From Bacteroidales bacterium (GTDB lineage: Bacteria; Bacteroidota; Bacteroidia; Bacteroidales; JAADGE01), in NCBI GenBank assembly GCA_029934515.1, contig JAOZMB010000022.1, positions 1-33,531 on the forward strand: a DNA stretch of 33,531 nt. The letters run 5' to 3'. Shown piece after piece: positions 6,149-33,531 of the stretch. How positions within the stretch are numbered: the stretch's first letter is position 1; each line of letters begins with the position of its first letter. The notes beneath the pieces are model-generated. The model worked only from the letters and a program-made list of their open reading frames with translations. It had not been told where the DNA came from and did no database searches. Made by a program: the position numbers and the translations under genes.

Positions 6149-6190
6149 TGAAAGAAATTAAAAATTAAATAATTATTTATTGCAAAATCA

Positions 6191-7666
6191 ATGAATAGCT
6201 TAGAAAAATATTTTGAGAAGTTTAGAAAAAATATAATTGGTATTGATGCAGAGTTTGAAACATCTTGTGGTACTAAGAAAATGATTTATGCAGATTGGAT
6301 TGCAAGTGGCAGATTGTATGCACCGATAGAGGACAGAATGAGAAATCTTATAGCTCCAATGGTTGGCAATACGCATTCAGAAGCAAGCGAGACAGGTATT
6401 ACAATGACTTTTTTGTACAAACAGGCTCAACAAATTATAAAAAAACATGTAAATGCTTTCGATGATGATATTCTTATAAATGAAGGGTCGGGGATGACTG
6501 GTGCGGTGAATAAATTACAACGTATTATTGGTTTGAAGGTTCCTGAGCAGGCACAAAAATATTGTCGAAGTAAGATTGATAAAGATGATTATCCGATTGT
6601 GTTTATTACACACATGGAGCATCATTCAAACCATACATCATGGCTGGAAACAATGGCTGATGTTGTTGTGCTTGAACCATGTAAGGGTATTAAAACAAAT
6701 CCAGATACTTTGAGAAAAGAATTGAAAAAATATAAAAATCGTAAATTTAAAATTGGTTCGTTCAGTGCAGGCTCGAATGTAACTGGTATTATTCCGCCGT
6801 ATTACGAACTTGCCGAAATAATGCACGAACATGGAGGTTATGCTTTTATTGATTTTGCCGCATCGTTTCCTTATATAAATATTGATATGCACCCCGAAAA
6901 TGAAATGCAACGTTTAGATGCTATTTTCTTTTCGCCACATAAAGCGCTTGGAGGCCCAGGAAGTTCGGGAGTTTTAATATTTAATAAAGAATTGTATAAA
7001 AATAAAGCACCTGATAATCCTGGCGGTGGGACTGTTCTGTGGACAAACAGATGGAACGAATATGCTTATGTAAATAATATAGAAACAAAAGAAGACGGCG
7101 GTACTCCAGCTTTCCTGCAAACAATAAGAACAGCTTTCACAATAAAATTGAAAGAGAAAATGGGCTGTGAAAATATTATTAAAAGAGAACACGAACTAAT
7201 TAAAATCGCATTCGAAGAGTTTGACAAAATACCAAGTTTACAAATATTATCTTATGAAAATAAATGCAGACTCGGAGTTTTTTCTTTTTTTATTAAAGAT
7301 ATACATCACAACCTAATAGTAAGAATATTAAACGATGAATTTGGTATTCAGGTTCGAGGAGGATGTTCGTGTGCAGGAACTTATGGACATTATTTATTGC
7401 ATGTTACAAAAATAGAATCGCATAGAATAACAGATATGATTAATCTGGGAAATTTGTCAGAAAAACCCGGATGGGTTCGTGTGTCAATTCATCCAACAAT
7501 GACAAACGAAGAACTGTATTTTATAACAAAGGCAATAAAACAAACAGTTGAGAATATCAATACCAGAAAAAAAGATTATTATTTTGATACAGAAAGTGGA
7601 GAATTTTTTCATAATAAAGAAGCACGAAGGAAACAAGAAGATTTTTGCAAATGGTTTGATTTATAG
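6191..7666 (+). CDS. Aminotransferase class-V-fold PLP-dependent enzyme (cysteine desulfurase / selenocysteine lyase-like)
   Basis: 491 aa. HMEHHSN, FSAGSNVTG, and PLP-lysine context FFSPHKALGGPGSSGVL typical of fold-type I class V enzymes. Confidence 0.7.
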   Translation: MNSLEKYFEKFRKNIIGIDAEFETSCGTKKMIYADWIASGRLYAPIEDRMRNLIAPMVGNTHSEASETGITMTFLYKQAQQIIKKHVNAFDDDILINEGSGMTGAVNKLQRIIGLKVPEQAQKYCRSKIDKDDYPIVFITHMEHHSNHTSWLETMADVVVLEPCKGIKTNPDTLRKELKKYKNRKFKIGSFSAGSNVTGIIPPYYELAEIMHEHGGYAFIDFAASFPYINIDMHPENEMQRLDAIFFSPHKALGGPGSSGVLIFNKELYKNKAPDNPGGGTVLWTNRWNEYAYVNNIETKEDGGTPAFLQTIRTAFTIKLKEKMGCENIIKREHELIKIAFEEFDKIPSLQILSYENKCRLGVFSFFIKDIHHNLIVRILNDEFGIQVRGGCSCAGTYGHYLLHVTKIESHRITDMINLGNLSEKPGWVRVSIHPTMTNEELYFITKAIKQTVENINTRKKDYYFDTESGEFFHNKEARRKQEDFCKWFDL

Positions 7667-8835: not shown

Positions 8836-8913
8836 GTTTTTTGTTTATTATAAAAAAATACTTCAGCAATCTTTTCAGATTGTTGAACATTTTTACATTT
8901 AATTTATTTAATT

Positions 8914-11019: not shown

Positions 11020-11104
11020 TAATTGTAATGAAAAAATGAGAATTGACTAATAATTATTTTTTTGTTTAAAAAAGTTTTACTTATTTTGTAATCTTTTAAA
11101 TTTC

Positions 11105-11136
11105 GGGGGAGGCGCATAGCTTCCCCTTCTTAATTT
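11105..11136 (+). terminator. Rho-independent terminator candidate (GC-rich hairpin plus T-rich tail) after the 8914-11019 gene
   Basis: gggggaggcgcatagcttcccc hairpin (GGGGA/TCCCC stem) followed by ttcttaattt. Only GC-rich island in this intergenic tract. Confidence 0.55.
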
Positions 11137-11167
11137 AATAAAAAAATCAAAAATTAAAAATTAAATT

Positions 11168-12811: not shown

Positions 12812-12836
12812 AGTGAAAATTTTTTCAAAAAAGTGT

Positions 12837-12881
12837 AGCTATTTTTGTATATATTATCATATTTTATAAACAAAAATAGCT
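12837..12881. terminator. Inverted repeat between convergent genes (possible bidirectional terminator)
   Basis: agctatttttg (12837-12847) and caaaaatagct (12871-12881), 11-bp perfect arms with 23-nt loop. Lies between the GHL10 stop (12811) and flotillin stop (12905). Confidence 0.3.
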
Positions 12882-12904
12882 AACATGTTTAAAGATTTTA
12901 TTAT

Positions 12905-19699: not shown

Positions 19700-20419
19700 A
19701 TGAATCAAGAAATAAACTCTCGAACAATTTTATTGCTTGGCAAAGCAAATGTTAATAAACTAAAAAAATCTCATGTTCTGATTGCAGGATTGGGTGGTGT
19801 CGGCGGATATGCAGTTGAACAATTAAGTCGCTCTGGAATAGGTGAATTAACAATTGTTGATGCAGATACTGTAAACGAAAGTAATATTAATAGACAGATA
19901 ATTGCTCTAACAAATACTGTTGGAAAAAATAAAACAGATTTGTTTGCCGAAAGAATAAAAAATATAAATCCGAATATAAAAGTAAATGTCGTAAAAAAAT
20001 ATATTAAAGACGAAGAAATAACAAATTTATTACAACGATACAATTATGATTTTGTAATAGATGCGATTGATACTCTTGCACCTAAAGTTAAATTTATATC
20101 AGAATGTATGCGAATGCAATTTCCGTTTGTTAGTTCGATGGGAGCTGGCGGAAAGATGAATATAGAAAAAGTAAAAATTGCAGATATTAGTAAAACATAT
20201 AATTGTGGTTTGGCAAGAATGGTTCGTAAACGTCTTTATCGTGTTGGGATAAGAAAAGGTTTTGAGGTTGTTTTCAGTACCGAAAAAATAATAAAAGAAG
20301 CAATTATTACAGAACCAAGCGAAAATAAAAAAACTACGGTTGGAACGATTTCGTATATGCCTGCTGTATTTGGTTTATATTGTGCTTCCGTAGCCATTAA
20401 GTTTTTAATTAATTCTTAA
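19700..20419 (+). CDS. tcdA: tRNA threonylcarbamoyladenosine dehydratase (ThiF/MoeB E1-like fold)
   Basis: 239 aa. Rossmann VLIAGLGGVGGYAVEQLSRSGIGELTIVDADTVNESNINRQ, then FVIDAIDTLAPK. Length and motifs match TcdA/CsdL rather than MoeB/ThiF proper. Confidence 0.75.
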   Translation: MNQEINSRTILLLGKANVNKLKKSHVLIAGLGGVGGYAVEQLSRSGIGELTIVDADTVNESNINRQIIALTNTVGKNKTDLFAERIKNINPNIKVNVVKKYIKDEEITNLLQRYNYDFVIDAIDTLAPKVKFISECMRMQFPFVSSMGAGGKMNIEKVKIADISKTYNCGLARMVRKRLYRVGIRKGFEVVFSTEKIIKEAIITEPSENKKTTVGTISYMPAVFGLYCASVAIKFLINS

Positions 20420-20423
20420 AAAA

Positions 20424-21392
20424 ATGATAAAATTTTTAATTATAAGATTTAGTTCGATTGGTGATATTGTGCTTACTACTCCTGTTATTAGATGTTTAAA
20501 AAAACAACATAAAGAAGAGGCACTTGTTCATTTTCTTACTAAGGAACAATATAAAATAATTGTTATTAATAATCCGTATATTGATAAAATACATATTTTG
20601 AACAAAAATTTTAGACGGACAATTGAAGAGTTAGAAAAAGAAAAATTTGATTATATAATCGACCTGCATAATAATATCAGAACATTAAGAATTAAATTAA
20701 ATTTAAAAATCCCAACGGAAAGTTTTAATAAAATTAATATCAGAAAGTTCTTAATTGTAAATTTTAAAATAAATAAACTACCAGACACACATATAGTAGA
20801 TAGATATTTGAATACGATAAAAAAGTTTGGTATCCAGAATGATAATAAAGGTTTAGATTATTTTATTCCACAAAAAGACAAAGTTGATATTAATTCATTA
20901 CCAAAAAAATTTCATAAAAATTATGTTTTTTTTGCAATCGGTGCGCAACACAATACAAAAAAATTACCTCCAGAACAAATAATTGAAATTTGTAATAATA
21001 TTAAATATCCAATAATTATTTCTGGAGGCAAAGCAGATAATAGGGTAGGGGAGTTTGTTGAACACGAATCAAAAAATATAATCTTTAATTCTTGCGGAAA
21101 ATATAATCTTAATCAATCTGCTTCACTTGCCAAACAATCCAAAATTGTAATCACACATGACACAGGACTTATGCACATTGCTGCCGCTTTTAACAAAAAA
21201 ATTATATCTATATGGGGAAATACAATTCCTGAATTTGGAATGTATCCATATATGCCAGATAAAAAATATATAACAATTGAAGTGAAAAATTTGAGATGCA
21301 GACCATGTTCAAAAATAGGTTACAAAAAATGTCCTAAGAAACATTTTAAATGTATGAAAAATATTAAATTCAAAAGTTCAATGATAGAATGA
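20424..21392 (+). CDS. Glycosyltransferase family 9 (heptosyltransferase-like)
   Basis: 322 aa. N-terminal IIRFSSIGDIVLTTPVIRCLKKQ. HDTGLMHIAAAF near C-terminus. Starts 4 bp after tcdA, so probable operon. Confidence 0.8.
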   Translation: MIKFLIIRFSSIGDIVLTTPVIRCLKKQHKEEALVHFLTKEQYKIIVINNPYIDKIHILNKNFRRTIEELEKEKFDYIIDLHNNIRTLRIKLNLKIPTESFNKINIRKFLIVNFKINKLPDTHIVDRYLNTIKKFGIQNDNKGLDYFIPQKDKVDINSLPKKFHKNYVFFAIGAQHNTKKLPPEQIIEICNNIKYPIIISGGKADNRVGEFVEHESKNIIFNSCGKYNLNQSASLAKQSKIVITHDTGLMHIAAAFNKKIISIWGNTIPEFGMYPYMPDKKYITIEVKNLRCRPCSKIGYKKCPKKHFKCMKNIKFKSSMIE

Positions 21393-21410
21393 AAAATAAA
21401 AAATATAATT

Positions 21411-21869
21411 TTAAACTTTCCATAGACCATTCTCATATTTTATTTTCAATGATTTTATAATATTGTAGATTTGTGCTTTTTGATAATTTACATTAAAATG
21501 ATTTTTTACAAGCAAAGTAATATTCCTTCCGTTCCAGCGTTTTTCTTCAATATCAAATTCTTCTGGTTTCTGTGTAAGTATAATTTTTTTTAACTCTTCT
21601 TTTTGCTCATTTGTCAATCCCGGTTTCCGTCCTGTTTTAGGCTTATCATTCAAACTCGCTTCGCCTTCCAAATTAAAATAATGTATCCAAATTGTAATTT
21701 GTTTAAAACTTATATCAAATAAACTTTCTAATTTTCTTGCACTCCAACCTTTTGAAAAAAGATAAATAGCAAACAATTTTAATCCTTTTTTATAACAATT
21801 GTTCGAATTTATTAATTTTTTTATTTCTTCGCTTGAATAATCATTTATTTGTAGCTTATTTTTATACAT
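21411..21869 (-). mobile_element. IS630-family transposase N-terminal (HTH/wHTH) portion only. DDE catalytic half absent: IS remnant or domesticated fragment
   Basis: 152 aa. GWSARKLESLFDISFKQITIWIHYFNLEGEASLNDKPKTGRKPGLTNEQKEELKKII...FDIEEKRWNGRNITLLVKNHFNVNYQKAQIYNIIKSLKI matches the paired HTH region (..GL.DKPRSGRP..) of IS630/Tc1 transposases. The stop is 18 bp from the converging GT9 stop, leaving no room for a DDE domain. Confidence 0.6.
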
Positions 21870-22139
21870 ATTGATTGTTTTTTGTGTAATGAATTATTAT
21901 ACAAAATTAGAAAAATATTGAATAAAATCCGATTTTTTTATACTTTTTATTTAATCGCCTGAAAATAAATTTCGTTAAAATACATACAATTCAAATCTGA
22001 ATATGCAATTTTCAAGCGATTAAAACACTGTAAATACATGATTTTGTTGCTAAAATTAACATTTTTTTATTTTAATTTATTCTAAAAATGGCTAAAATGC
22101 TAATATTCAGCAATATACAAATTTACAAATAAATAATAT

Positions 22140-22586
22140 TTATGCTGGATAATATTCTATAAAGGTTCGGTCTGAGTTAAAAATTAGAATTCTTTCAGCT
22201 CTACAATTTTTCCTTTTCTTCTTCTTTTTCTTCTTTTTTATTTTCGTTTCAACTATATTTTCGTTTTCTTCTGTCTCATCTTTCTTTACTTCTGCAATTT
22301 TTATCTTTTTAGGTTTTATTATTTCCTCTTGTTTTGCTTCTTCTGGTTTTTCTGAAAATATTTTTTGAGTTCTGACTGTTCTATACATAGAACCTTTTCC
22401 AAAAAGCAACCATTCTGGTTCTAATTTATTAAAAGCTGTCAATATTTCCTGAACAACATCCAGACTGGGATTGTTACGTCCTGATAAAATATGCGAAACA
22501 CTCGACCTTTGCCTTCCTATTTTTTTTGCAAAATCAGAAGCTGATAACTTTTCCGTTTCAATTATTTTTTTTATTCTACTTTTCAT
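22140..22586 (-). CDS. XRE-family helix-turn-helix transcriptional regulator with lysine-rich C-terminal tail
   Basis: 148 aa. LSASDFAKKIGRQRSSVSHILSGRNNPSLDVVQEILTAFNKLEPEWLLFGKG (HTH_XRE pattern). The K-run is encoded by a ~40-nt polypurine tract. Confidence 0.7.
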   Translation of the reverse strand: MKSRIKKIIETEKLSASDFAKKIGRQRSSVSHILSGRNNPSLDVVQEILTAFNKLEPEWLLFGKGSMYRTVRTQKIFSEKPEEAKQEEIIKPKKIKIAEVKKDETEENENIVETKIKKKKKKKKRKNCRAERILIFNSDRTFIEYYPA

Positions 22587-22598
22587 ATTTGTATTAGA

Positions 22599-22643
22599 TT
22601 TACATTTGTAAACATTACTTTGATTTAAGTTTACAAATGTAAT
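22599..22643. promoter_or_regulatory. Operator pair 1: two TTTACA-N2-TGTAAA palindromes 31 bp centre-to-centre, 13 bp upstream of the XRE regulator start codon
   Basis: tttacatttgtaaa at 22599-22612 (perfect) and tttacaaatgtaat at 22630-22643 (1 mismatch). TTTACA is the reverse complement of TGTAAA. Confidence 0.5.
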
Positions 22644-23187
22644 AACAATAATTTGATTTATAACAATAATTTTATGTTTTTTTTTTATTAATTTGAATTA
22701 AATAAAATCTTATGAATAATCATTTGTTGTGCTTAATTATATAAAGTTTTGAAAATATTGATTACAGAAATATTACAATGCTAAATTCTAAATGTAGTTA
22801 TATTTAATATTATTCGCAAAGATGTAATGAATGAAGGTTAATATAATTGTCTAAAATTTACATAGGTAATCTGTTTTTAATTAAGATTAAGTTTTATTTG
22901 ATACATTCTATTTTTAAAATCGCATAAACAATCTTTTAAATTGTTAATTTCTAAGAACTTCATTTATTTATTATTCAAATTATTATTTAAGAAATTAGGA
23001 ATAACTATATTAAATTTTTTATAAATTGGTTTATTTCTTTTATAACTCAAAAAAATATTTAATCATTATTTTTTGACGTAATAAAATAGTGAAATAATGT
23101 AATCCTATTTTTATTTAATAATTTTCATTATTTGATTTTTTAACCTTTTATATATTGCCTTTATTGTCTTAAAATCAACTGTTTAAT

Positions 23188-23222
23188 AACAAACACTTAA
23201 AGTAATAGTTTAAGTGTTTGTT
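23188..23222. other. Perfect 14-bp stem / 7-nt loop hairpin inside the ORF-free tract
   Basis: aacaaacacttaaa (23188-23201), gtaatag loop, tttaagtgtttgtt (23209-23222). Confidence 0.5.
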
Positions 23223-23794
23223 TAAATTTGGATAGATAAAAACTTACATATTTTTTTAAGATTGTCGAGATTAATATGGTTTAAGTTTTATATTTAGTCC
23301 AAATTTTTCGATTATACGAAGATTTAAGATAATATAAACATAATTCGCTGATTTATTTATTTAAAGCCTAAAAACGTTTATTTCAAGGAATTGAGACCTT
23401 TACAATCAAAAAATTCTTTAAATGTTTTATAAGACGTTAAGTTCATATTTAAGTAATTAACGTATAAAATAATAATCTTTAAGGTTGAGTTGAATAAATG
23501 AACAGTTTACCGAATTTAATAATAAGATTTTTATCAAAAATAAGAATAAAAGTTGTTTGCTAATTTCATAACTTGTGAAATATTTATAATTTATTTTTAT
23601 ATCTTAGTTTTACAAAACATAAGTAGCTGACCACAAAGAATTTTTTATTTCAGAATTGTAACCAAACAATAGAAAATTATTACTTATTTCATATTATGAA
23701 ATTTTATGGCTGGGAAAAAAACATTTCAAAAAAGCAATATCATTATTTTTAAAATTTGCCAAAATTTAAGAAGCACTAAAATAAATTGATGGTG

Positions 23795-23849
23795 TTTACA
23801 TTTGTAACTATAATTAAAGTTTTAATTATTTGTTGTTTACATTTGTAAT
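23795..23849. promoter_or_regulatory. Operator pair 2: two further TTTACA-N2-TGTAAA-like palindromes 41 bp apart, not adjacent to any ORF of 62 aa or more
   Basis: tttacatttgtaac at 23795-23808 and tttacatttgtaat at 23836-23849. Confidence 0.4.
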
Positions 23850-24600
23850 TATTATATTCAATAGCAAAAAATATTATTTATCAACTCTGCAAAAGTTAAT
23901 AAAATAATATTTTTCATATTCATAAGAGAATTTAAAATTTATATCGGTATTTTTATGGAGTAGATAATTATTTAATTCGTGTTGAAAAAATATTAAAGAA
24001 CAAAATAAAAATTCTCATTGGCTATTTTCATTAATCAATAAAAAAAAAAAAAATTATATGAGCATTATTTTTTTTGATAAAATATTTAAAAATAATAAAA
24101 TTTATTCAAGTCGTTGTTTTTGATTAAAATATACTTTATTTAATGTTTTGTAACTAATTGAATATCAATGTTATATGATTTTTATTTTAAAAATAAAAAT
24201 AAAAATAAAAACAATAAAATGTTAAAAACCTAATAATCAGCATGTTATGATAAAAATAAGAGTTGTTTAAATGTTGTTTTTTTTACATATTTTGCTTAAA
24301 ATTAAAAAATATTGCATTTTAAAAGAGTTAAACAAAAAATAGAAAAATTTCTGTTATAAATTACGAATTTTAAGTTGAAAAAAGCATAATCTAAAAATAA
24401 AATACACACTTTTATTAAAATAATAAAAATCTGTATTTTCTAAATTCAAATGTTTAATATTATCAAAATAAGAACAATTAGTATATTTTTTGCCAAAATA
24501 TTTGATTAAATTAAAATAAAAAAATAAAATGATAGGGGTATTTTAAAAAGTAATTGTCATAAAACTGTATAATACAAATATTCAATTAAATAAAAAAATA

Positions 24601-26955
24601 ATGAAAAAAATCAATTTATTTATGATTATGATAATATTTTTAGGAAATATTATTACAGCACAAAACAACAACACACAGACTATACGCGGGAAGATTGTTG
24701 ATAGTAAAACAGACGATCCAATTATCGGAGCAACTGTAATTATTTTGGATACCGACCCTTTAATTGGTACTGTAACTGATATCAATGGAAAATTTAGATT
24801 GGAAAATATAGCTCTCGGAAGACAAGGAATACAGATTAGTTATACTGGATATAATCAAGTTGTTATGAAAAATTTGGTTCTCGTTAAAGGCAAACAAACA
24901 GTTCTTAATATAAAAATGGAAGAGAGTGTAACCGATCTCGAAGAAATTACAGTTACTGTAAAAACAGATAAAACCCAAATAAATAATGAAATGGCAACAG
25001 TTAGTGCGAGGTCGTTTAGTGTGGAAGAGACTGAAAGATATGCTGGAAGTCTTGGTGACCCTTCGCGTATGGCTGCTAATTTTGCTGGAGTTATGTCTGT
25101 TGCCGACCAGAGAAATGACATAGTAATTCGTGGTAATTCTCCTTATGGTTTACTCTGGCGACTTGATGGAATTGATATTCCAAACCCAAATCATTTTGGT
25201 TCGCAAGGGTCAACAGGAGGTCCTGTTAGTATGCTTAATAATAATCTGCTTGCCAATTCAGATTTTTTTACAGGAGCTTTTCCTGCCGAATACGGTAATG
25301 CTATATCAGGAGCTTTTGATTTGAACATGAGAAATGGAAACAACGAAGAATATGAATTTCTTGGACAAATGGGTTTTAATGGTTTTGAACTTGGTGCCGA
25401 AGGTCCTATAAACCGGAAAACAGGTTCTTCGTTTATCGCAAATTTTAGATATTCAACACTTGAACTGATGAGTAATCTTGGAATAAATATGGGGGCTGGA
25501 GCCTCTGTTCCTCAGTATAAAGATTTTACTTTCAAAATTAATTTACCAAGAGGAAAATATGGAAAGCTATCAATTTTCGGTATCGGAGGTTTGAGTTATA
25601 TAGAAATGTTAGACAGCCAAGACGATGGTGCTGAGTTCGGTTTTGGTGGAACTGATTTAAGATATGGTTCGGATATGGGTGTGATAGGAATAAATCATAC
25701 AACATATTTGAAAAATAATACAAGATTAGTAACACGATTTTCTGTTCTCGGAACAAAAATTATAACTAAAATGGACTCGCTTGACAAAGACTATAATTAT
25801 GATTTTTTGTTTTATCTAGCAACAACAAAAGAAGTTAGATATAATATTGCATTGGAATTACAGAAGAAATTTAATTCAAAAAATTATTTGAAAACTGGAA
25901 TAAAATATAAACTGCTCGGCTTGGATTATCAGGATTCAGTTTTTAGACATAACAGATATATAAAACAATTGGAATTGAATGATAACCTTATTTTTACACA
26001 AGCATTTACACAGTTCCAACATAAATTTTCAGATGATTTTAATGCAAATATCGGTGTTTATGCACAGTATTTACCTCTGAACGAATCATTATCAATAGAA
26101 CCTCGCTTTGGTGTGAAATGGAATATTGTGCCAAAACATTCGATTAGTGCAGGTTTTGGAATGCACAGTCAGTTACAGGTATTACCTTTTTATTTTATGA
26201 AAGATTCAATCAATAATGAATACACAAACCAACATCTTGATTTTAACAAAAGCATACACAATGTAATTGCTTATGACTTTATTATAAACCAGAATTTTAG
26301 ATTTAAATGTGAAGCATATTATCAAATTGTTTCAAACATTCCAGTTTCTGATGAACAAGCTGAATTTTCTATGCTTAACACAGGCGATGATTTTACATCA
26401 TCGGTTTATTACAATATGAAAAATGAAGGAACAGGTACAAATTATGGACTTGAATTTACACTTGAAAAGTTTTTTAGCAAAGGTTTTTATTTTCTTATAA
26501 CTGCATCATTATTTGAATCAAAATATAAAGGTGCTGACGAGATTGAAAGAGATACAAAATTTAACGGGAATTATGTTTATAATGTTCTTGGCGGATATGA
26601 ATTTAATATTGGTAAAAATTCTATGCTTGCCCTCGACCTGAAAGGTGTATATGCAGGCGGAAAAAGATATATACAAGTAGATATTGAAAAAAGTAAAGAA
26701 GAACATTCTTTGGAATATGATTGGAGTAATTCTTACGAAAAAAGGTTTGATGATTATTTCAGATTAAATGCAAGAATAACTTTTAAATTAAATTCAAAGA
26801 AAAGAGCATTGAGCCATGAATGGGCTCTTGATATTCAAAATATTACAAACCATCAAAATGTTTATGCACAAAGCTGGGACGATGACAAACAAGAAGTAGT
26901 AATTGATTACCAACAAGGTTTTTTTCCAATGGTAACTTACAGAATATTATTTTAA
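24601..26955 (+). CDS. TonB-dependent receptor (CarbopepD_reg-like N-terminus, plug, 22-strand barrel)
   Basis: 784 aa. Signal peptide. IRGKIVDSKTDDPIIGATVIIL...GKFRLENI. Plug NDIVIRGNSPYGLLWRLDGIDIPNPNH. C-terminal MVTYRILF (terminal aromatic). Confidence 0.85.
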   Translation: MKKINLFMIMIIFLGNIITAQNNNTQTIRGKIVDSKTDDPIIGATVIILDTDPLIGTVTDINGKFRLENIALGRQGIQISYTGYNQVVMKNLVLVKGKQTVLNIKMEESVTDLEEITVTVKTDKTQINNEMATVSARSFSVEETERYAGSLGDPSRMAANFAGVMSVADQRNDIVIRGNSPYGLLWRLDGIDIPNPNHFGSQGSTGGPVSMLNNNLLANSDFFTGAFPAEYGNAISGAFDLNMRNGNNEEYEFLGQMGFNGFELGAEGPINRKTGSSFIANFRYSTLELMSNLGINMGAGASVPQYKDFTFKINLPRGKYGKLSIFGIGGLSYIEMLDSQDDGAEFGFGGTDLRYGSDMGVIGINHTTYLKNNTRLVTRFSVLGTKIITKMDSLDKDYNYDFLFYLATTKEVRYNIALELQKKFNSKNYLKTGIKYKLLGLDYQDSVFRHNRYIKQLELNDNLIFTQAFTQFQHKFSDDFNANIGVYAQYLPLNESLSIEPRFGVKWNIVPKHSISAGFGMHSQLQVLPFYFMKDSINNEYTNQHLDFNKSIHNVIAYDFIINQNFRFKCEAYYQIVSNIPVSDEQAEFSMLNTGDDFTSSVYYNMKNEGTGTNYGLEFTLEKFFSKGFYFLITASLFESKYKGADEIERDTKFNGNYVYNVLGGYEFNIGKNSMLALDLKGVYAGGKRYIQVDIEKSKEEHSLEYDWSNSYEKRFDDYFRLNARITFKLNSKKRALSHEWALDIQNITNHQNVYAQSWDDDKQEVVIDYQQGFFPMVTYRILF

Positions 26956-27181
26956 TAAAAAAAATGTAATTAATTTTATTTATTATTAATATCTTTGTAA
27001 AATATTAAAGCCTGTAAGATTTTGAAAATCTTGCAGGTTTTGTTATTATAAATTTAATTTGCATAAATAATTTAATATGCAATTGGTATATTCTAAAAAA
27101 ATGTATTTCTTTGCAAAAATTTTTCAATTGCATAAATTTAAAATGTTTAAAAATATTAATCCGATTGTTTATAATATGGTT

Positions 27182-28486
27182 ATGAAAAAACTATCAATAT
27201 TTATTATATTTACTCTGGCAAACTTAATATGTTATTCACAACTTAATCAGAGATTGAGTCTTAAAAATGCTGTTTCGATAGGATTGAAAAATAATTACCA
27301 AATTCAAATTTCCGAAAGTGATATTGAAATTTCAAATAATAATAATACTTGGGGAAAAGCTGGTGGATTGCCGACTCTATCCGTTGGTGTTAATCAGGCG
27401 AATAGGTTTGACAATAGTGAAAGTCAGATAACAGATGGAAGAGATGATATTTATTCTAATTCTATTTCGCCGTATGCAAATCTGCAAATGGTTATTTTTA
27501 ATGGTTTTGCAATTACAATTAATAAACAAAATCTTGAAAAATTACAGGAACTATCAAAAGGTTATATGCAACTGACAATAGAGAATACTATTTCGGAAAT
27601 AAAGAACTCTTACTATTCTGTTTTGCTTGAAAATGAAAAGTTAAAAGTTGTTCGTGAACTTATGTTGTTATCAAAAGACCGCTACGATTATATGTTAATA
27701 AAACAAGAACTTGGTACAGCTGTTACTTATGATGTTCTTCAGATTAAGAACTCATTTCTTACAGATTCATCGAATTATTTGTTACAAAAAATTGTTTATG
27801 ATAATTCAATGCGGCAGTTAGGCAAAGTGCTTGGTAATAATATTTTTATTCGTTATGAGCTTACTGGCGATTTAAGTTTTGAGGATAAAGATTATATTTT
27901 GGGTGATTTAATAACTCAACTTACCGATAGAAATTCTACTTTGCAAAACCTGAATATTAGTCAAGAAATGTTAAAAAATAATATAGAACTTGCAAAAAGT
28001 TCTTTGTATCCTTCGTTGGTGCTCAATGCAGGAGCCGATTATTCAAAACAAAGAAGAAAATATAATGACTTAGAATCACAAAGTTCGTACTCGTATGATA
28101 TGTATGCAAATCTGTCGCTTAGCTATACTATTTTTAATGGCGGAAACAGAAACCGCAATATTGCAAATGCAAAAATAGAAGCCGACAAAGGACTCCTACA
28201 AATAAAAGATTTAGAATTAACACTTAAAAATACTTTGTTTTCTTTGTACGAAATGTATGAAGTTAGAAGACAATTATTGCGAGTTGCAAGTGAAAACCTC
28301 GAAGCCGCAAAATTAAATCTTGAAATATCAAAAGACAAATTTAATTCAGGAGCAATTAATTCATTTAATTATCGTGATGTTCAGATTATTTATTTGAACA
28401 CAGCCTTTTCAGAATTGCAAGCTAAATATAATCTAATAAGCACTCATATTGATTTAATGAAAATTACTGGAAATACAGTTCAATAA
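27182..28486 (+). CDS. TolC-family outer-membrane efflux protein. The ORF-track start at 27077 is probably too far upstream
   Basis: Signal peptide begins at internal Met (MKKLSIFIIFTLANLICYSQ), start at 27182 or 27176. LSLKNAVSIGLKNNYQIQ... typical TolC/OprM N-terminal helix start and two repeat halves. Confidence 0.7.
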   Translation: MKKLSIFIIFTLANLICYSQLNQRLSLKNAVSIGLKNNYQIQISESDIEISNNNNTWGKAGGLPTLSVGVNQANRFDNSESQITDGRDDIYSNSISPYANLQMVIFNGFAITINKQNLEKLQELSKGYMQLTIENTISEIKNSYYSVLLENEKLKVVRELMLLSKDRYDYMLIKQELGTAVTYDVLQIKNSFLTDSSNYLLQKIVYDNSMRQLGKVLGNNIFIRYELTGDLSFEDKDYILGDLITQLTDRNSTLQNLNISQEMLKNNIELAKSSLYPSLVLNAGADYSKQRRKYNDLESQSSYSYDMYANLSLSYTIFNGGNRNRNIANAKIEADKGLLQIKDLELTLKNTLFSLYEMYEVRRQLLRVASENLEAAKLNLEISKDKFNSGAINSFNYRDVQIIYLNTAFSELQAKYNLISTHIDLMKITGNTVQ

Positions 28487-28521
28487 CATAATAAAAATCA
28501 ATGAGTCGATAAATAAAAAAT

Positions 28522-29127
28522 ATGTTAATAATAGGAATTGCTGGAGGAACAGGCTCCGGAAAAACAACAGTTGTAAAAAGAATAATGGAACGTTTACCAG
28601 AAGGAGAAGTTGCTGTGCTTTCGCAGGATTCTTATTACAGAGATAACAGCGATATACCTTTGGAGGAACGTCTAAAAATTAATTTCGACCACCCAAAAGC
28701 TATTGAATTTGAATTATTAATCGAACATATAGAACAACTGAAAAATGGAAAAACGGTAGAGCAACCAATATATTCGTATCTAACATGTACCAGAGCAAAA
28801 GAGACAATTAAAGTAAAGCAACGTTCTGTTATTATAGTAGAAGGTATATTAGTGCTGACAAGCAAAAGGTTGAGAAATTTGTTTGATATAAAAATATTTG
28901 TACATACTGATGACGATGACAGACTTGCGCGAGTCATTCGTCGAGATATAATTGAACGAGGAAGAACAGTTGAAAAAGTTCTATACCGTTATGATAATTT
29001 TGTGAAACCAATGCACAAACAATTTATCGAACCAACAATGAAATATGCAGATTTAATTGTACCACAAGGAGGACACAATACTGTTGCAATTGATGTTTTA
29101 TCTTCTATAATCGAACAAAATCTTTAA
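28522..29127 (+). CDS. udk: Uridine kinase
   Basis: 201 aa. IIGIAGGTGSGKTTV P-loop, DSYY, IIVEGILVL, typical Udk length. Confidence 0.9.
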   Translation: MLIIGIAGGTGSGKTTVVKRIMERLPEGEVAVLSQDSYYRDNSDIPLEERLKINFDHPKAIEFELLIEHIEQLKNGKTVEQPIYSYLTCTRAKETIKVKQRSVIIVEGILVLTSKRLRNLFDIKIFVHTDDDDRLARVIRRDIIERGRTVEKVLYRYDNFVKPMHKQFIEPTMKYADLIVPQGGHNTVAIDVLSSIIEQNL

Positions 29128-29140
29128 TTTAAAATAAATT

Positions 29141-29863
29141 ATGCTTGACAATATTTTAGACAATAAAATTTTATTCATTGATATCGAGACCGTCCCAGAA
29201 AAAGCAAAACACTCGGAGTTGTCAGATATAATGAAAAAACTTTGGGAAAAAAAATCAGAGTATTTTAGAAAAGAACAAACAGCAGAAGAGGTATATCAAA
29301 AGGCTGGTATCTATGCAGAATTTGGTAAAATTGTTTGTATATCAACTGGATTTATAGCCTTGAAAAAAGACGGTCAAAAGATTATAAGAATAAAATCTTT
29401 TTACGGCGATAACGAAAAAAAATTACTGACAGAATTTAAACAACTTTTAGAAAGAGCATATAACTCGGCGAATAAATTCCTTTGTGCTCACAACGGAAAA
29501 GAATTTGATTTTCCTTATACAGCAAGAAGAATGCTTATCAACGGTATCAAATTACCAAAAATACTTGATTTAGCTGGAAAGAAGCCATGGGAAATTAAGC
29601 ATCTTGATACGCTTGAATTATGGAAATTCGGAGATTACAAAAATTATACATCTCTTGAAATTCTCACTACTATATTTAATATACCAACACCGAAAGATGA
29701 TATAGACGGAAGTATGGTTGCATCGGTTTATTGGGAGGAAAAAGATTTAGACAGGATTGTAACATATTGCGAAAAAGATGTTGTTGCAATAATACAATTA
29801 TATTTTAAATATAAATGTAAAAATCTAATTCCAGAAGATAACATTTTTAGAATAACAAGCTGA
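29141..29863 (+). CDS. Predicted 3'-5' exonuclease (DEDDy, PolB-exonuclease-like)
   Basis: FIDIETVP (Exo I), CAHNGKEFDFPY (Exo II), YCEKDVVAI (Exo III). Confidence 0.7.
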   Translation: MLDNILDNKILFIDIETVPEKAKHSELSDIMKKLWEKKSEYFRKEQTAEEVYQKAGIYAEFGKIVCISTGFIALKKDGQKIIRIKSFYGDNEKKLLTEFKQLLERAYNSANKFLCAHNGKEFDFPYTARRMLINGIKLPKILDLAGKKPWEIKHLDTLELWKFGDYKNYTSLEILTTIFNIPTPKDDIDGSMVASVYWEEKDLDRIVTYCEKDVVAIIQLYFKYKCKNLIPEDNIFRITS

Positions 29864-29980
29864 CAGAAATTGATAATTATAAATATTATGATACGAAGAA
29901 TAATTTTAATTCCGAGTATGATAATATTTTTTTATTCGTGCATATATGAACCAGAAAAAATATTATTTAGAGAAATATAA

Positions 29981-30391
29981 TTATCCGTTATTTGAGTTTC
30001 CCGTAAAAATTTTAGTCTGCCAACTATCAAGCATAACATCATATGAGTATGTATATAAGTCGTAGAATTTCTTTTTCGAATTGTATTTCAATGTCCATGT
30101 TGGTACAAGTTCTCCACTTATTCCTTCCATGTGAATCTTAAAAACACCATCTGAAATCTTCTCAATTCTGTCAATGACTATTTCTTCTTCCTGAATGTAT
30201 GTACCTTCGATAAAAACAGAGTGCATTGCAACAAAATTATTCTTAGTGTCAGAGAAATAGATTACCCAAGTCTCCATTTTTTTTTCATTACGATACTCGC
30301 CCTTAGTATCATTTATACCTTCAATTGACCATTGTGCTTGTGTGGATAAAACTGCAATCAGTATTACTGATAATAAAATTAATTTTTTCAT
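29981..30391 (-). CDS. Small secreted hypothetical protein
   Basis: 136 aa. Signal peptide MKKLILLSVILIAVLSTQAQ. No recognisable domain. Confidence 0.5.
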   Translation of the reverse strand: MKKLILLSVILIAVLSTQAQWSIEGINDTKGEYRNEKKMETWVIYFSDTKNNFVAMHSVFIEGTYIQEEEIVIDRIEKISDGVFKIHMEGISGELVPTWTLKYNSKKKFYDLYTYSYDVMLDSWQTKIFTGNSNNG

Positions 30392-30419
30392 TCTAAATAT
30401 TTTTTGTTATTATTTATAA

Positions 30420-30466
30420 ATCTGTGAAAATCCGTATAATCAGTGTTCCTCTGTGTTCCTATTATT
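30420..30466 (+). repeat. Copy B of the 47-bp intergenic element. Overlaps the last codons of the pepM-fusion gene and lies 28 bp upstream of the 29981-30391 gene start
   Basis: atctgtgaaaatccgtataatcagtgttcctctgtgttcctattatt. Contains internal tandem decamer cagtgttcct ctgtgttcct. Confidence 0.7.
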
Positions 30467-31763
30467 TTGTCCCTGGTATTAGTTCCAAAATTTCTTTTAC
30501 TGGCATCAATTTTTCGTTTGCTTCTTTGCTTCGTTCATGCAAAAGTATTTTTTTTGCTGTATCCAACATTGCAGGATATGAACTTCTCAGCATATGATTT
30601 GCATATATTACTACATTTATTCCAGCTTCGGCAAGTTCAGATTCGTAAATACTATTGTAACTTGTAGGTACTGCAATAAGTGTTTTTTTGTTAGGAATTT
30701 TTTTGTACATTGAACAAAATTCTAATATTTCGTCTGTTTTTTTTTCTTTGCTATGTATCATTATTCCATCTGCTCCTGCTTCGATATAAGCTTTTGCTCT
30801 TTTTATGGCATCATTGAGTCCATTTTTTAATATAAGACTTTCTATTCTTGCAATAATCATAAAGTCTTCGGTCACCTTTGAATTATGTGCCATTTTTATT
30901 TTATGACAAAAATTTTCAATACTGTCCTGTGTTTGTTTTACAGAAGTTCCGAAAAGAGAGTTCTTTTTCAAGCCAGTTTTATCTTCGATAATTATTGCAG
31001 AGATGCCGAGTCTTTCTAATGTCCTTACAGTAAATGCAAGATGCTCAGGACGACCTCCCGTATCGCCATCATAAATAATAGGTTTTGTTGTGCATTCCAG
31101 AATATCATTAAGGCTTTGCAATCTCGAAGTTACATCAACAGCTTCAATATCTGGTTTTCCTCTTAATGTTGAATCAGTCAAACTTGACGACCACATTCCA
31201 TCAAATTCATGTTTTATATCATTAATTTCAACACTTATTTTTTCACAAATTATTCCAGACAATCCACTGTGTGCTTCTAATATACGAACAATTGGTTTAG
31301 ATTCTATTAACCTTCTTAGTCTTTTTTTCCTTATCTCAGGTGTTGTTCCTATTTCGCTGATACTTTTATTTAACATACTTGACGATATTCCTTTTGTATA
31401 AGGTATTTCGATAAGTTTTCCGTTAAGTTTTTTTAGTGTATCTATTACTCTTTGTCTTGTTTCTTTTTGGGGGCCATGCTTCCAGTCATCACCGTGTATA
31501 ACAAAGTCTGGTTTGTATTTCAATAGATTTGGAACGTAATCTAATGTGCTTTGTATAACAACTTTTTTTACTCCTTTTATATTTTCAACTATAATTTTTC
31601 TTTGTTCATAAGCCATATAAGGCAAACGTTTATAGCTTGCAATAGCTTTATCTGTAAGCAATCCTATTGTCAGTTCACCTAATTTTCGAGCTTCTTTTAT
31701 TATGTTTAAGTGTCCATGATGTACAAGGTCGGCACTCATTCCTATATATACTTTTTTTTTCAT
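30462..31763 (-). CDS. pepM: Fused cytidylyltransferase (HxGH) - phosphoenolpyruvate mutase: first enzyme of phosphonate biosynthesis
   Basis: 433 aa. N-terminal ~130 aa with [18 protein letters not shown] (HxGH nucleotidyltransferase motif). C-terminal ~290 aa in the ICL/PEP-mutase superfamily with [15 protein letters not shown], which is exactly the EDK-X5-NS motif used to discriminate PepM from other superfamily members, plus [27 protein letters not shown]. Confidence 0.8.
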
Positions 31764-32219
31764 TTGTCGATTTTCTTATCTCTTTTTTATAAATTTTTGT
31801 TGTCTATATCTGACAAAAAAGCTGTGCAAATGTAATTATATTATTTTTATAAAAAAAAATACAATTTTTGTTCTAATATACAAATGTTTATAACAACTTA
31901 AATTTTATATAAAATTCAGTACTATTATCAATAAAAATTAAAAATCTGGAACTAATTTTGCGGGTAGAATTTATTACTCTAATTATATATAATGTAAAGT
32001 TTGCAACTTTATAGTAATTAAAACGGTCTAAATAATAGTAAAGTTTACAAAAAAAGTATATTATACTGTAAATCAAAGATATAACATTTTGATATTCGAC
32101 ATATCTTAACAATAAATATCAACAGAAAAAAATGTTTAATCAAAAAAATTACTTCCTAATCACAAAAAATTGTAAATTGTTTTTTTTACAATAATTTTAA
32201 TATTAAAAATAATATAATT

Positions 32220-33531
32220 ATGAAAACAAAACTATCAAATCTAAGAAAAACCTTAAAGAAGAAAAAAAACTTTTCCTTGTTTTTCTTCTCTTTATTCATT
32301 ATTACACTTACTCCAAATCAAATTTACGCGCAATTGAGTTATGACAGAGAATATGTAAGTGTATCAAATTTGTCGAATAATAATTTTATTGTTCCAGAAA
32401 AAAAGATAAAACCATTAGTTAAACCAATTTTTACAATGCAACCTATAAATGTGGACGTTTGTGAAGGAGGTTCTTCATCTTTTTCTGTAAATACAAGTTC
32501 GGCAAGCGAAGTTTCATATCAATGGCAACGGTTCGAGAATTTAGAGGCTTGGAACAATATTAATGATAATGAAATATACAGCGGAACGACAAGCAAAAAA
32601 TTGACTTTAACTGATATTCCTATTTCTTTCGATGAATACGAATATCGATGTACCGCGACAAACGAAAGCGGAAGCAACCAAAGTAATAAAGCAACATTAT
32701 ATGTAAATGCTACACCAATAGTAATTACAGAAGACGACAAAGTCACAGATGATTGTTCCGAAAGTATCTCAGGAACAGCTGAAAACGCAGAATGGACAGA
32801 ATGGTCTCTTGTGTCTGGATATGGTGATATTATAAATATATACGAACTGACAACCGATGTAGAAAACTTAAATCAAGGAATTAATGTTTTTCGTTTAACT
32901 GGATATACGGAAAGTAATTGTTTGGGATACGATGATATTCAAATAGAAGCAACAACTATATTTGCAACAGCAGAAGATATTAATGTTTGTACAGAAAATG
33001 CAATATTAACAGGAAATATACCAGAACCTGGAAGAATAGGATTATGGACTATTACAAACGGAGACTCAGATATTATCATCAATGAACCTGAAAGTTATAA
33101 CTCAACAGTTATGAATATAATGAGCTACCAAACAAATATTCTTCGATGGACGGTTACATCTGAAGTATGTGCTGGTTATGTTGAAATTGAAGTAAACAAT
33201 AATTTTGTTTCTACTTATGCTGGTGAAGATTATAATGTTTGTTCTGATATGTTTTCTATTGCGGCAGAGACTCCAGCACGAGGAACAGGAATATGGACGG
33301 TACTTGTTGGAGGAGGAATTATTGAAAATACATCAACAAATTATACAAATGTTTATAATATGGACAAAGGTGATAATATATATCTTTGGACTTTGACTTA
33401 TAAAAACTGCAGTGCATCTGATGATGTAAAAATAAGAAATCAAATACCAACTGAAGCAAATATACAATTACCATTACCTGAAAATAGAGAAGTTTGCAAA
33501 GACTCTGTTTCGCTAACAGCAAACAATCCAG
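32220..33531 (+). CDS. Very large surface adhesin-like protein, 5' part only (continues beyond the window). Signal peptide, Ig(I-set)-like module, then ~85-aa tandem beta-sandwich repeats
   Basis: Open frame from ATG 32220 to window end with no stop (unterminated, so absent from the track). Signal MKTKLSNLRKTLKKKKNFSLFFFSLFIITLTPNQIYAQ. Ig-like YEYRCTATNESGSNQSNKATLYV. Repeats of the type NVC(T/S)..A.L.....P..G.G.WTV..G.G.I.N.....T.V.N........LRWTVT...C...D.V.I. Confidence 0.7.
   Translation, partial: MKTKLSNLRKTLKKKKNFSLFFFSLFIITLTPNQIYAQLSYDREYVSVSNLSNNNFIVPEKKIKPLVKPIFTMQPINVDVCEGGSSSFSVNTSSASEVSYQWQRFENLEAWNNINDNEIYSGTTSKKLTLTDIPISFDEYEYRCTATNESGSNQSNKATLYVNATPIVITEDDKVTDDCSESISGTAENAEWTEWSLVSGYGDIINIYELTTDVENLNQGINVFRLTGYTESNCLGYDDIQIEATTIFATAEDINVCTENAILTGNIPEPGRIGLWTITNGDSDIIINEPESYNSTVMNIMSYQTNILRWTVTSEVCAGYVEIEVNNNFVSTYAGEDYNVCSDMFSIAAETPARGTGIWTVLVGGGIIENTSTNYTNVYNMDKGDNIYLWTLTYKNCSASDDVKIRNQIPTEANIQLPLPENREVCKDSVSLTANNP

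Follow-up and report, generated by a model that had tools for sequence, protein, structure and literature searches.

A Fom1-type cytidylyltransferase-PEP mutase gene with no partner gene nearby in an uncultured Bacteroidales bacterium

The window analysed in this work, a stretch of 33,531 nucleotides from an uncultured Bacteroidales bacterium, encodes a bifunctional protein of the Fom1 type, in which a cytidylyltransferase (CyTase) domain precedes a phosphoenolpyruvate (PEP) mutase domain. The gene (pepM) has no partner gene of the phosphonate pathway nearby, an arrangement that is unseen in 71 informative relatives and constitutes the one real oddity of the locus. The fusion is already described and both the enzyme type and the pathway logic are published, so that the finding as it stands matters little. 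The gene is a marker, indicating that the bacterium may carry surface decoration with phosphonates of the 2-hydroxyethylphosphonate (HEP) type. If the phosphonopyruvate decarboxylase gene (ppd) were truly absent from the whole genome, the locus would point to one of two things, a hitherto unknown means of driving the PEP mutase equilibrium or a pathway caught in the course of its loss. The reading favoured here, with somewhat better than even confidence, is that of a standard Fom1-type enzyme acting in the canonical pathway, the partners of which would be encoded elsewhere in the genome. The features of the locus are collected in Table 1.

Table 1. Features of the pepM locus, in positions of the window.
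Feature	Position	Strand	Basis or remark
Bifunctional cytidylyltransferase-PEP mutase gene, Fom1-type architecture	30462..31763	(-)	433 aa, ATG-started intact ORF
Cytidylyltransferase domain, aa 4-138, predicted CTP:2-hydroxyethylphosphonate cytidylyltransferase	31350..31754	(-)	Similarity to 5x3d
HxGH nucleotidyltransferase signature (HHGH), aa 15-18	31710..31721	(-)	Translation
Leu113 codon	31425..31427	(-)	Trp in 119/119 best-listed homologues and Fom1
PEP mutase domain, C-terminal, aa 146-432	30468..31328	(-)	Full-length alignment to PepM structures
EDK-X5-NS PEP mutase signature, aa 260-269	30957..30986	(-)	Translation; active-site gating loop
Putative Bacteroidota-type -7 promoter box TACATTTG	31827..31834	(-)	Pattern match, 64-71 nt 5' of ATG
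136-aa ORF, exported	29981..30391	(-)	Co-oriented, 70 nt downstream of pepM, where relatives have ppd
T9SS surface protein, 5' part, 1964 aa, divergent	32220..33531	(+)	Start 32220

In the encoded protein, Pfam places CTP_transf_like (PF01467) at residues 10-131 (58.6 bits vs 21, E 1e-15) and PEP_mutase (PF13714) at residues 149-407 (E 1e-53), with both domains in a single chain and PF01467 first. The same architecture is found in more than 8000 database homologues, with a top non-self identity of 77%. Fused forms account for 59.5% of the Ppm enzymes, and in 23.6% the fusion partner is PF01467 (PMC6697681, Rice 2019). These figures leave nothing remarkable in the fusion, to which the original prediction had drawn attention. 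The contig has a GC content of 29% and the GC3 of pepM is ~20%; the pepM alleles are identical in the window, the ENA and the Logan assemblies. The sequence of the window does not match JAPOGT010000004.1 letter for letter. Three clustered nonsynonymous differences beside His337, confined to a very fragmented sibling assembly, were set aside as assembly noise, because the same assembly also contains an N-run and another mismatch cluster. The pattern of the putative promoter box occurs 85 times in the window against ~67 by chance, which makes it weak evidence. Neither Rfam nor tRNA scanning gave a match in the window.

The sequence identifies the C-terminal part as a genuine PEP mutase, predicted to interconvert PEP and phosphonopyruvate. 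Its best PDB matches are PepM structures (5unc, E 3e-40; the Mytilus enzyme 1m1b, E 2e-38), and it scores 413.1 bits with the NCBIfam PEP mutase equivalog TIGR02320, for which the cutoff is 319.55. The sister equivalogs remain below their cutoffs, with 150 bits vs 374 for phosphonopyruvate hydrolase, 104 vs 354 for methylisocitrate lyase (PrpB) and 52 vs 420 for carboxy-PEP mutase (CPEP mutase). The EDK-X5-NS signature, used as a Ppm discriminator (PMC6697681, PMC8931226), aligns with E114-S123 of the Mytilus enzyme. In the HMMER alignment to 1m1b, the Mytilus residues W44/S46/L48/D58/D85/D87 correspond to W191/S193/L195/D205/D232/D234, and E114/K120/N122/S123/R159/H190 to E260/K266/N268/S269/R306/H337, all of them identical. 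The earlier assignment as a genuine PEP mutase, and not a methylisocitrate lyase or CPEP mutase, is thus borne out by the equivalog scores and the mapped catalytic residues, and the signature on which it relied is real and superimposes on active-site residues of the Mytilus PepM. Another member of the ICL/PEP mutase superfamily (methylisocitrate lyase, carboxy-PEP mutase or phosphonopyruvate hydrolase) would have the fold and Pfam PF13714 in common with the protein, but the equivalog scores, the signature and the PepM structures at the top of the PDB matches make this extremely improbable; from the sequence comparison, a non-PEP-mutase reading is already refuted.

The N-terminal domain is identical to the Fom1 CyTase (5x3d) at 85 of 135 residues (63%), in an ungapped alignment with an E of 7.8e-54. 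It contains GDDW, and the segment YTKGISSS (~aa 121-128) aligns with YTPGISST of Fom1, an RTxGISTT-like signature. Identity to the window CyTase ranges from 60 to 75% in loci with an Fe-dependent alcohol dehydrogenase (Fe-ADH; mean 66.8, n=85) and from 34 to 64% in AepZ loci, defined by TIGR03301 passes (mean 56.2, n=34; p=1.7e-16 vs the Fe-ADH loci). Similarity and co-occurrence together suggest, as indirect evidence, that the substrate is probably HEP, which would be converted into CMP-HEP. The proposal that the fused HxGH domain implies a CMP-activated phosphonate is therefore supported, both by the identity to Fom1 and by the grouping with Fe-ADH (HEP-branch) relatives.

Conservation was assessed over the 119 best-listed homologues of the more than 8000 proteins with this architecture. 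The window protein keeps 120 of the 121 columns that are invariant among these 119, the exception being the CyTase Trp replaced by Leu113. At columns conserved to at least 95%, it departs from the family at six of 190, with a homologue median of one, and ranks fourth of 120. The five departures other than Leu113 are conservative or fall on the variable x of HxGH, a position held by Pro in 114 of the 119 best-listed homologues and in Fom1 and by His16 in the window protein. Leu113 and HHGH lower the confidence in full CyTase activity and leave the homology unaffected. The excess of changes at conserved sites could reflect relaxed constraint.

In relatives with 65-77% identity, pepM opens a canonical operon, in which it is followed by ppd, the Fe-ADH gene and then a gene for a TagF-like, LicD or CDP-alcohol transferase. 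Four such loci (L002, L003, L004 and L005; PepM 71-75% identical) combine pepM-ppd-FeADH with Glyphos_transf or CDP-OH_P_transf, and the Ppd of L002 reaches 490 bits with TIGR03297 (cutoff 312.5). The ppd gene lies within the locus in 70 of the 71 informative relatives and directly downstream of pepM in 64, with a median gap of 11 nt, and none of the 71 is devoid of every pathway gene. The sole relative without a downstream ppd (L140) was rejected as a precedent for isolation, because it retains an Fe-ADH-LicD fusion and its contig stops 367 nt upstream of pepM.

The surroundings of the window gene are of a different kind. Genes for a ThDP decarboxylase, an AEP transaminase, an Fe-ADH or a phosphonyl transferase are missing, both as ORFs and as pseudogene fragments, from the window and from the ~8 kb by which L001 continues past its edge, to a distance of 10 kb from pepM. 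Searches for ppd, as an ORF (TIGR03297/TPP_enzyme) or as a tblastn match, were negative in the window, L001 and L006 (all E>1), as well as in a near-identical contig extended to 64.7 kb. LicD, Glyphos_transf and CDP-OH_P_transf were recovered neither by Pfam, among the ORFs accepted as real with a length of 110 aa or more, nor by tblastn, and the window and its flanks hold no pseudogene remnants of ppd, Fe-ADH or the transferases. The flanks free of pathway genes extend over ~37 kb on one side of pepM and 10 kb on the other, and the ppd-less junction is identical in three assemblies; for these two reasons the isolation is regarded as real and rare. The claim that a pepM set apart from its pathway is unusual consequently stands, with no counterpart among the 71 informative close relatives. 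A ppd just past the window edge, which would have made the cluster canonical, was looked for and none is present in the flanks.

A collection of genome contigs was also searched for Ppd with a three-sequence alignment. Among the best 80 of at least 600 matches, none is a JAPOGT/JAPOGW contig and none is attributable to the source organism, and these 80 loci include no pepM-less locus that resembles it by GC and tetranucleotide similarity. Split arrangements do occur, as two Ppd loci (L017 and L053) lack a pepM within 6 kb, and ppd has been reported on another contig in some cases (Acker et al., PMC8931226).

The flanking genes agree with their earlier description as a 136-aa ORF with a signal peptide, a DEDDy exonuclease and a divergent surface protein. 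The 136-aa ORF has no Pfam or NCBIfam match, a signal peptide is seen in its sequence, and no terminator-like site separates it from pepM. Its family comprises 19 homologues among 1.84 billion representatives, the closest of which is not beside pepM. This ORF was rejected as a coupling factor because of its export, its very small size and the lack of pepM linkage in its closest homologue, and its position is judged incidental. At the C-terminus of the 1964-aa surface protein, TIGR04183 (33.4 bits vs 23) identifies a type A sorting domain of the T9SS. The suggestion that this adhesin is linked to phosphonate modification finds no echo elsewhere, since the adjacency is absent in every relative examined. 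The exonuclease is DEDDy/PolB-exo-like, and other flanking genes encode a uridine kinase, a TolC-like protein and a TonB receptor. Also within the window are an HTH_32 fragment resembling a transposase and 2 kb of AT-rich sequence that is non-coding. A class-V aminotransferase at 6191..7666 was discarded as AEP transaminase, being SufS-like and scoring 19 bits with PhnW vs 400.8; it is the only Aminotran_5 protein of the window and lies 24 kb from pepM.

If the enzyme does act in the canonical pathway, the PEP mutase domain would interconvert PEP and phosphonopyruvate, and phosphonopyruvate decarboxylase, encoded by the next gene in relatives, would pull the unfavourable mutase equilibrium. 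The Fe-dependent alcohol dehydrogenase, encoded by the second next gene in relatives, would then convert phosphonoacetaldehyde into HEP. The HxGH CyTase domain, acting three steps after the mutase, would form CMP-HEP from HEP and CTP, and CMP-HEP would then serve a TagF-like, LicD-like or CDP-alcohol transferase in the decoration of a glycan, polymer or lipid. A rearrangement in this Bacteroidota lineage has probably split pepM from the operon; ppd, the dehydrogenase and the transferase would be encoded elsewhere in the genome and the enzyme would still serve the canonical pathway. The mutase reaction is thermodynamically unfavourable, with an equilibrium that favours PEP, and requires coupling (PMC9381506); a maintained pepM therefore implies that a partner exists somewhere. 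The window enzyme nests among relatives that all use Ppd and Fe-ADH, and the ancestral pathway was on that account probably canonical. The original prediction that C-P compounds are very probably produced by this organism goes too far, since neither a coupling nor a tailoring gene was found for its pepM.

The isolation could also be read as decay. The operon may have fallen apart, with loss of ppd and of the dehydrogenase and transferase genes, leaving pepM intact but idle and the cell without phosphonates. This is doubtful, though it carries appreciable weight, as neither a pathway gene nor a pseudogene fragment occurs within the ~37 kb and 10 kb of flank, such isolation has no parallel in the 71 relatives, the six conserved-site changes against a median of one include the loss of the invariant CyTase Trp, and the HTH_32 fragment and the AT-rich stretch hint at rearrangement or decay. 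On the other hand, the ORF is full-length and retains every catalytic residue and 120 of 121 invariant columns, the remaining five departures are conservative or lie at the HxGH x position, and the alleles do not differ between the window, ENA and Logan. A gene that has diverged by ~25% from its nearest relative and is yet undamaged points to purifying selection that is still acting, unless the gene was orphaned only very recently.

The other accounts change the chemistry instead of the gene order. A PalB-like transaminase, a VlpB/malate-dehydrogenase-like reductase, an FrbC-like synthase or a novel enzyme, encoded nearby or elsewhere, might pull PepM in place of Ppd. The local lack of Ppd, the documented 'Pre-Ppd other' neighbourhoods (PMC8942020, section 18) and the lineage-specific CyTase changes P16H and W113L, which could in principle mean an altered substrate, speak for it; yet no candidate phosphonopyruvate-consuming enzyme is encoded near pepM, the family of the 136-aa ORF has no pepM association elsewhere, the sole aminotransferase is SufS-like and distant, and the relatives all use Ppd and Fe-ADH. 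Such non-canonical coupling, raised in the original prediction, is accordingly unlikely, and nothing in the flanks supports it, the 136-aa ORF being exported, too small and unlinked. It is quite unlikely that the lineage dispensed with Ppd altogether, that PepM is kept intact because an unrecognised enzyme encoded elsewhere takes phosphonopyruvate and that the CyTase (HHGH, Leu113) has shifted its substrate; if true, a Ppd-free lineage would give phosphonate biosynthesis a new branch point at an early step. Finally, the enzyme might run from phosphonopyruvate to PEP in a salvage or catabolic role, or just one of its domains might still be used. A stand-alone mutase would need no partner to work in this direction, which is the one favoured by the equilibrium (PMC9381506). 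However, genes for phosphonate uptake or for the catabolism of phosphonoalanine or AEP are absent from the vicinity, the biosynthetic CyTase domain is kept and the relatives are all found in biosynthetic operons, which makes the reverse direction very unlikely. We know of no catabolic role described for a Fom1-type fusion.

Among the known systems, the Mytilus edulis PEP mutase (1M1B/1PYM) is the mechanistic reference. Its active-site and Mg-binding residues are identical to those of the window protein except for G47, which corresponds to Ser194, a residue not flagged as departing from close homologues. The Mytilus enzyme is a stand-alone single domain, whereas the window protein has two domains and a 9-residue insertion (aa 177-185) in its PepM domain. 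The 'Pre-Ppd other' Ppm neighbourhoods (Li & Horsman 2022; GCF 842 of Paenibacillus larvae and GCF 540) resemble the window in having Ppm without Ppd, but they hold plausible phosphonopyruvate processors (malate dehydrogenase plus fumarase, PLP enzymes and other nucleotidyltransferases; PMC8942020, section 18) and the window holds none. Treponema denticola Tde1415, a PntC/LicC-type (PF12804) Ppm fusion (Rice et al. 2019), likewise joins the C-P-forming enzyme to one that activates the completed phosphonate with CMP for tailoring of the cell surface. It differs in its MobA-like nucleotidyltransferase fold, as opposed to the HxGH Rossmann-type fold of the window protein, and in its demonstrated substrate, AEP, as opposed to the predicted HEP.

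The closest characterised counterpart in domain order, PF01467 followed by PF13714, is Fom1 from fosfomycin biosynthesis in Streptomyces wedmorensis. Both proteins have HxGH, GDDW and T-x-GISS(T), and the catalytic set of the window PepM domain is complete. According to the description of Cho et al. 2017 given in PMC6697681, the product of the Fom1 CyTase is CMP-HEP; the predicted chemistry is alike, from PEP to phosphonopyruvate and from HEP and CTP to CMP-HEP. Fom1 belongs to an antibiotic gene cluster, in which CMP-HEP is a transient intermediate, while the window protein has no surrounding cluster and carries Leu113 for Trp and HHGH for HPGH. The CMP-HEP of the relatives more probably donates the head group of a surface polymer or lipid, because genes for TagF-like, LicD or CDP-alcohol transferases follow. 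The fused PepM operons of Bacteroidota and Bacteroidales encode proteins 65-77% identical to that of the window and equal to it in length and architecture. In the B. fragilis-type aepX-aepY-aepZ AEP operon (polysaccharide B), the fused PepM is likewise followed by Ppd (PMC6697681, PMC8942020), and the CyTase of such AEP-branch (AepZ) loci is more distant from that of the window than the CyTase of the HEP-branch loci.

The pepM gene, which encodes the fused HxGH cytidylyltransferase (CyTase)-PEP mutase, is separated from the other genes of its pathway, and this isolation is both real and rare. No ThDP enzyme, Fe-dependent alcohol dehydrogenase (Fe-ADH), AEP transaminase, LicD, TagF-like protein or CDP-alcohol transferase is encoded among the scanned ORFs of the window (every ORF ≥110 aa taken to be real). 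The sole class-V aminotransferase (6191..7666) was rejected as an AEP transaminase, being SufS-like and reaching 19 bits for PhnW vs 400.8. This 491-aa PLP enzyme (+ strand) is below every NCBIfam equivalog cutoff, with the SufS subfamily as the best match (135 vs 475 bits), and adjoins a secreted CAP/SCP-domain protein (4859-6097, + strand).

Features of the pepM region and of the encoded 433-aa protein
Feature	Position	Strand	Basis
Fused CyTase-PEP mutase gene (433 aa, ATG start)	30462..31763	-	ORF
CTP_transf_like domain	aa 10-131 of the 433-aa protein		Pfam
PEP_mutase domain	aa 149-407 of the 433-aa protein		Pfam
EDK-X5-NS PEP mutase motif	30957..30986	-	translation
HHGH (HxGH motif of the CyTase domain)	31710..31721	-	translation
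136-aa ORF with signal peptide, without family match, 70 nt 3' of pepM	29981..30391	-	
1964-aa surface protein, divergent, 5' of pepM	starts 32220	+	

The 433-aa protein is also encoded on contig JAPOGT010000004.1 (133.9 kb, GCA_029935795.1), whose gene calls continue over the window edge to 10 kb from pepM and include no pathway gene. The genes past the edge are only the adhesin, two small hypotheticals, a lipoate/biotin ligase-family gene and an AAA ATPase. The other side, to 64.7 kb of the contig, adds GMP synthase, PEPCK, an FGE-sulfatase-family gene and PorP/SprF. The phosphonopyruvate decarboxylase gene (ppd) is therefore not just beyond the window edge, in line with the orphan gene of the original prediction. 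In tblastn searches of the window and flanks with Ppd, Fe-ADH and three kinds of transferases from the relatives' operons all matches had E >1, so pseudogene remnants of pathway genes are absent there as well. The junction of pepM, the 136-aa ORF and the exonuclease gene is also present in the sibling assembly GCA_029935835.1 (99.86% identical over 13.2 kb) and in one ENA metagenome scaffold, and consequently is not a misassembly. Among the best 80 loci listed in a Ppd search of the genome collection, none is attributable to this organism.

The four close homologues on long contigs (L002-L005, PepM 71-75% identical) share the same operon in 4/4 cases. A ~376-aa TPP enzyme is encoded within a few nt of the fused pepM and is followed by a ~370-aa Fe-ADH; a gene for a Glyphos_transf (TagF-like) or CDP-OH_P_transf protein is beside them. 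The TPP enzyme of L002 is a phosphonopyruvate decarboxylase (TIGR03297, 490 bits vs 312.5). From the metagenome scan the best 80 relatives were listed, nine of which are uninformative (contig ends). Of the 71 informative ones, 70 contain ppd in the locus, directly downstream of pepM in 64 (median gap 11 nt) and elsewhere in six (three at 498-1193 nt downstream and three ~2.4 kb upstream). The sole informative relative without ppd, L140, has 367 nt of sequence upstream of pepM and, downstream, an Fe-ADH-LicD fusion, a glycosyltransferase and a flippase-like gene. Thus, none of the 71 informative relatives among these best 80 is stripped of pathway genes, and the isolated pepM is as unusual as had been claimed. 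The L140 fusion (1647-3629, 660 aa) directly follows the fused CyTase-PepM, and in it the enzymes forming 2-hydroxyethylphosphonate (HEP) and transferring the phosphonyl group would share one polypeptide.

Conversely, pepM is present in 77 of the best 80 Ppd loci listed from species-representative genomes. L017 (Nitrospinae) and L053 (Balneolales) lack pepM despite full 6-kb flanks. They exemplify ppd loci in nature that are split or do not depend on pepM; such split arrangements therefore occur, rarely. Their Ppd proteins (6001-7119 and 6001-7143, respectively) are full-length homologues, 52-55% identical to that of L002. In most genomes with pepM the decarboxylase is adjacent, or on another contig (Acker et al. 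2022, PMC8931226).

The isolation of pepM is at present unexplained rather than demonstrably novel. The equilibrium from PEP to phosphonopyruvate is unfavourable and an irreversible follow-up step is needed (PMC9381506). Since pepM is also intact over ~25% protein divergence from its nearest relatives, a coupling enzyme is expected somewhere. The most parsimonious explanation, with somewhat better than even chances, is that a canonical gene of the Fom1 type was moved by a rearrangement away from its partners (ppd, Fe-ADH and transferase), which would still be encoded elsewhere in the genome. The original prediction was correct in its observation and is supported only in part in its interpretation. 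The non-canonical coupling of the PEP mutase, which it proposed from the isolation of the gene, is very improbable: nothing speaks positively for it, and the 136-aa neighbour, exported and with a mature form of ~116 residues, is implausible as a cytosolic phosphonopyruvate-consuming enzyme.

The main rival to the displacement by rearrangement is that pepM was recently orphaned and is on its way to loss, which we regard as rather unlikely. The ORF is intact. Of 121 columns without variation in 119 homologues it keeps 120, and the window, ENA and Logan assemblies carry one and the same allele. On the other hand, among the 190 columns conserved to ≥95%, six differ in this protein (rank 4/120; median of the homologues 1, interquartile range 0-2, maximum 10). 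In the CyTase domain, HPGH is replaced by HHGH, at a tolerant x position, and Leu113 is found where 119/119 homologues and Fom1 have Trp. Of the other four deviations, V89I (CyTase domain), L171I and I422V are conservative changes, P361T less so. This gives no more than a mild hint that the CyTase domain may be under relaxed constraint or have an altered specificity. Three clustered nonsynonymous differences occur only in the highly fragmented sibling assembly and are probably assembly noise. The sibling assembly (as seen from L006, GCA_029935835.1, and L174) has contig numbers >57,000, an N-run within the adhesin gene and clustered mismatches; it looks like a metagenome-scale or host-plus-microbe assembly, whose single-nucleotide differences call for caution.

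The flanks described in the original prediction (secreted 136-aa ORF, DEDDy-like exonuclease and T9SS adhesin) were all recovered, and these neighbours are incidental. The 136-aa ORF is followed by the PolB-exo/DEDDy-like protein, a uridine kinase, a TolC-like protein and a TonB-dependent receptor. The 136-aa family is rare (19 representatives among 1.84 billion); all members carry leaders of the signal or lipoprotein type, and the domain often makes up the C-terminal end of larger exported proteins. Its core (EG.ND.KG.Y ... WTIHFS ... ISGE.VP.W.LKYN..KKFYDL ... SYD...D.W) is also the C-terminal domain of lipoprotein-like proteins of 140-380 aa. The closest homologue (62% identity) has unrelated genes around it and no pepM nearby. 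At the C-terminus of the 1964-aa protein, TIGR04183 detects a T9SS sorting domain of type A (33.4 bits vs 23). Phosphonate on surface glycoproteins is a published hypothesis (PMC8931226), and nothing ties it to this adhesin, which is beside pepM in none of the relatives examined; the suggested link between the two is not upheld. Two observations are weak in DNA of 29% GC: 64-71 nt 5' of the pepM ATG there is a putative -7 box of the Bacteroidota type (TACATTTG), and no terminator-like site was found between pepM and the 136-aa ORF.

The window is identical to JAPOGT010000004.1 at 19981-33531 (100%) and nearly so at 1775-14064 (99.98%). Its first ~1.8 kb (1-1775), within a ~525-aa hypothetical gene running off the 5' end, matches in fragments only (80-95%). 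The window thus evidently represents a further assembly of this one species. Obg places the organism in Bacteroidota, with nearest named relatives 73-76% identical (Flavobacteriales, Flavobacteriia, Bacteroidota or 'Chlorobi') and others up to 84%. The window is rich in T9SS cargo, with four Por_Secre_tail proteins (8113-11019, 18110-19348, 32220-end) that include a PKD-repeat protein and the 1964-aa Ig/PKD-like protein. A 701-aa cargo protein (Big_5 + Por_Secre_tail, 8914-11019, + strand) is intact in the window, a Logan contig and GCA_029935835.1. In JAPOGT010000004.1 it is split into 559 + 119 aa by a stop after ...ATITK, owing either to a nonsense polymorphism between strains or to an error in sequencing. 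Flanked by an HTH_3 regulator and a TonB-dependent receptor, 2 kb of 19-22% GC (22600-24600) contain low-complexity repeats only, with no ORF ≥50 aa in any frame and no Rfam or tRNA match; a 152-aa HTH_32/HTH_28 transposase-like fragment (21411-21869) adjoins them.

Two branches can be told apart among the loci. The loci with Fe-ADH after ppd (n=85) encode CyTases 60-75% identical to that of the window (mean 66.8%) and those without Fe-ADH (n=34) CyTases 34-64% identical (mean 56.2%; Mann-Whitney p=1.7e-16). Where loci lacking Fe-ADH were tested, ppd is followed by a gene for an AEP aminotransferase (passing TIGR03301). Since every locus with CyTase identity >64% contains Fe-ADH, and given the likeness to Fom1, HEP is most likely the substrate of the window protein's CyTase, giving CMP-HEP.

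The window protein itself is very ordinary and belongs to a well-known kind of enzyme. A search of 5.8 billion proteins gave at least 8000 matches at E <1e-30; the best 120 all have the same two Pfam domains, 425-459 aa and 68-77% identity, except for a single sequence at 99% identity that represents the cluster of the protein itself. Of all EDK-X5-NS PEP mutases, 59.5% carry a fusion to some other domain, and 23.6% a fusion to PF01467 (Rice et al. 2019, PMC6697681). By its sequence the protein is a true PEP mutase to which an HxGH CyTase is fused, as had been predicted, and not a sister enzyme: it scores 413.1 bits with the NCBIfam equivalog TIGR02320 (curated cutoff 319.55) and stays far below the cutoffs of the NCBIfam models for phosphonopyruvate hydrolase (150 bits vs 374), methylisocitrate lyase (104 vs 354) and carboxy-PEP mutase (52 vs 420). 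Among characterised enzymes the precedent is Fom1, from the fosfomycin pathway; its CyTase domain turns HEP into CMP-HEP (PMC6697681). The N-terminal domain matches the Fom1 CyTase structure 5x3d without gaps (E 7.8e-54, 85/135 residues identical), and with this precedent the fusion is a textbook one. The predicted EDK-X5-NS motif is present in the translation, and in the HMMER alignment all catalytic and Mg-binding residues are the same as in the Mytilus edulis enzyme (1M1B), where D58/D85/D87/E114/K120/N122/S123/R159/H190 align with D205/D232/D234/E260/K266/N268/S269/R306/H337 of the window protein.
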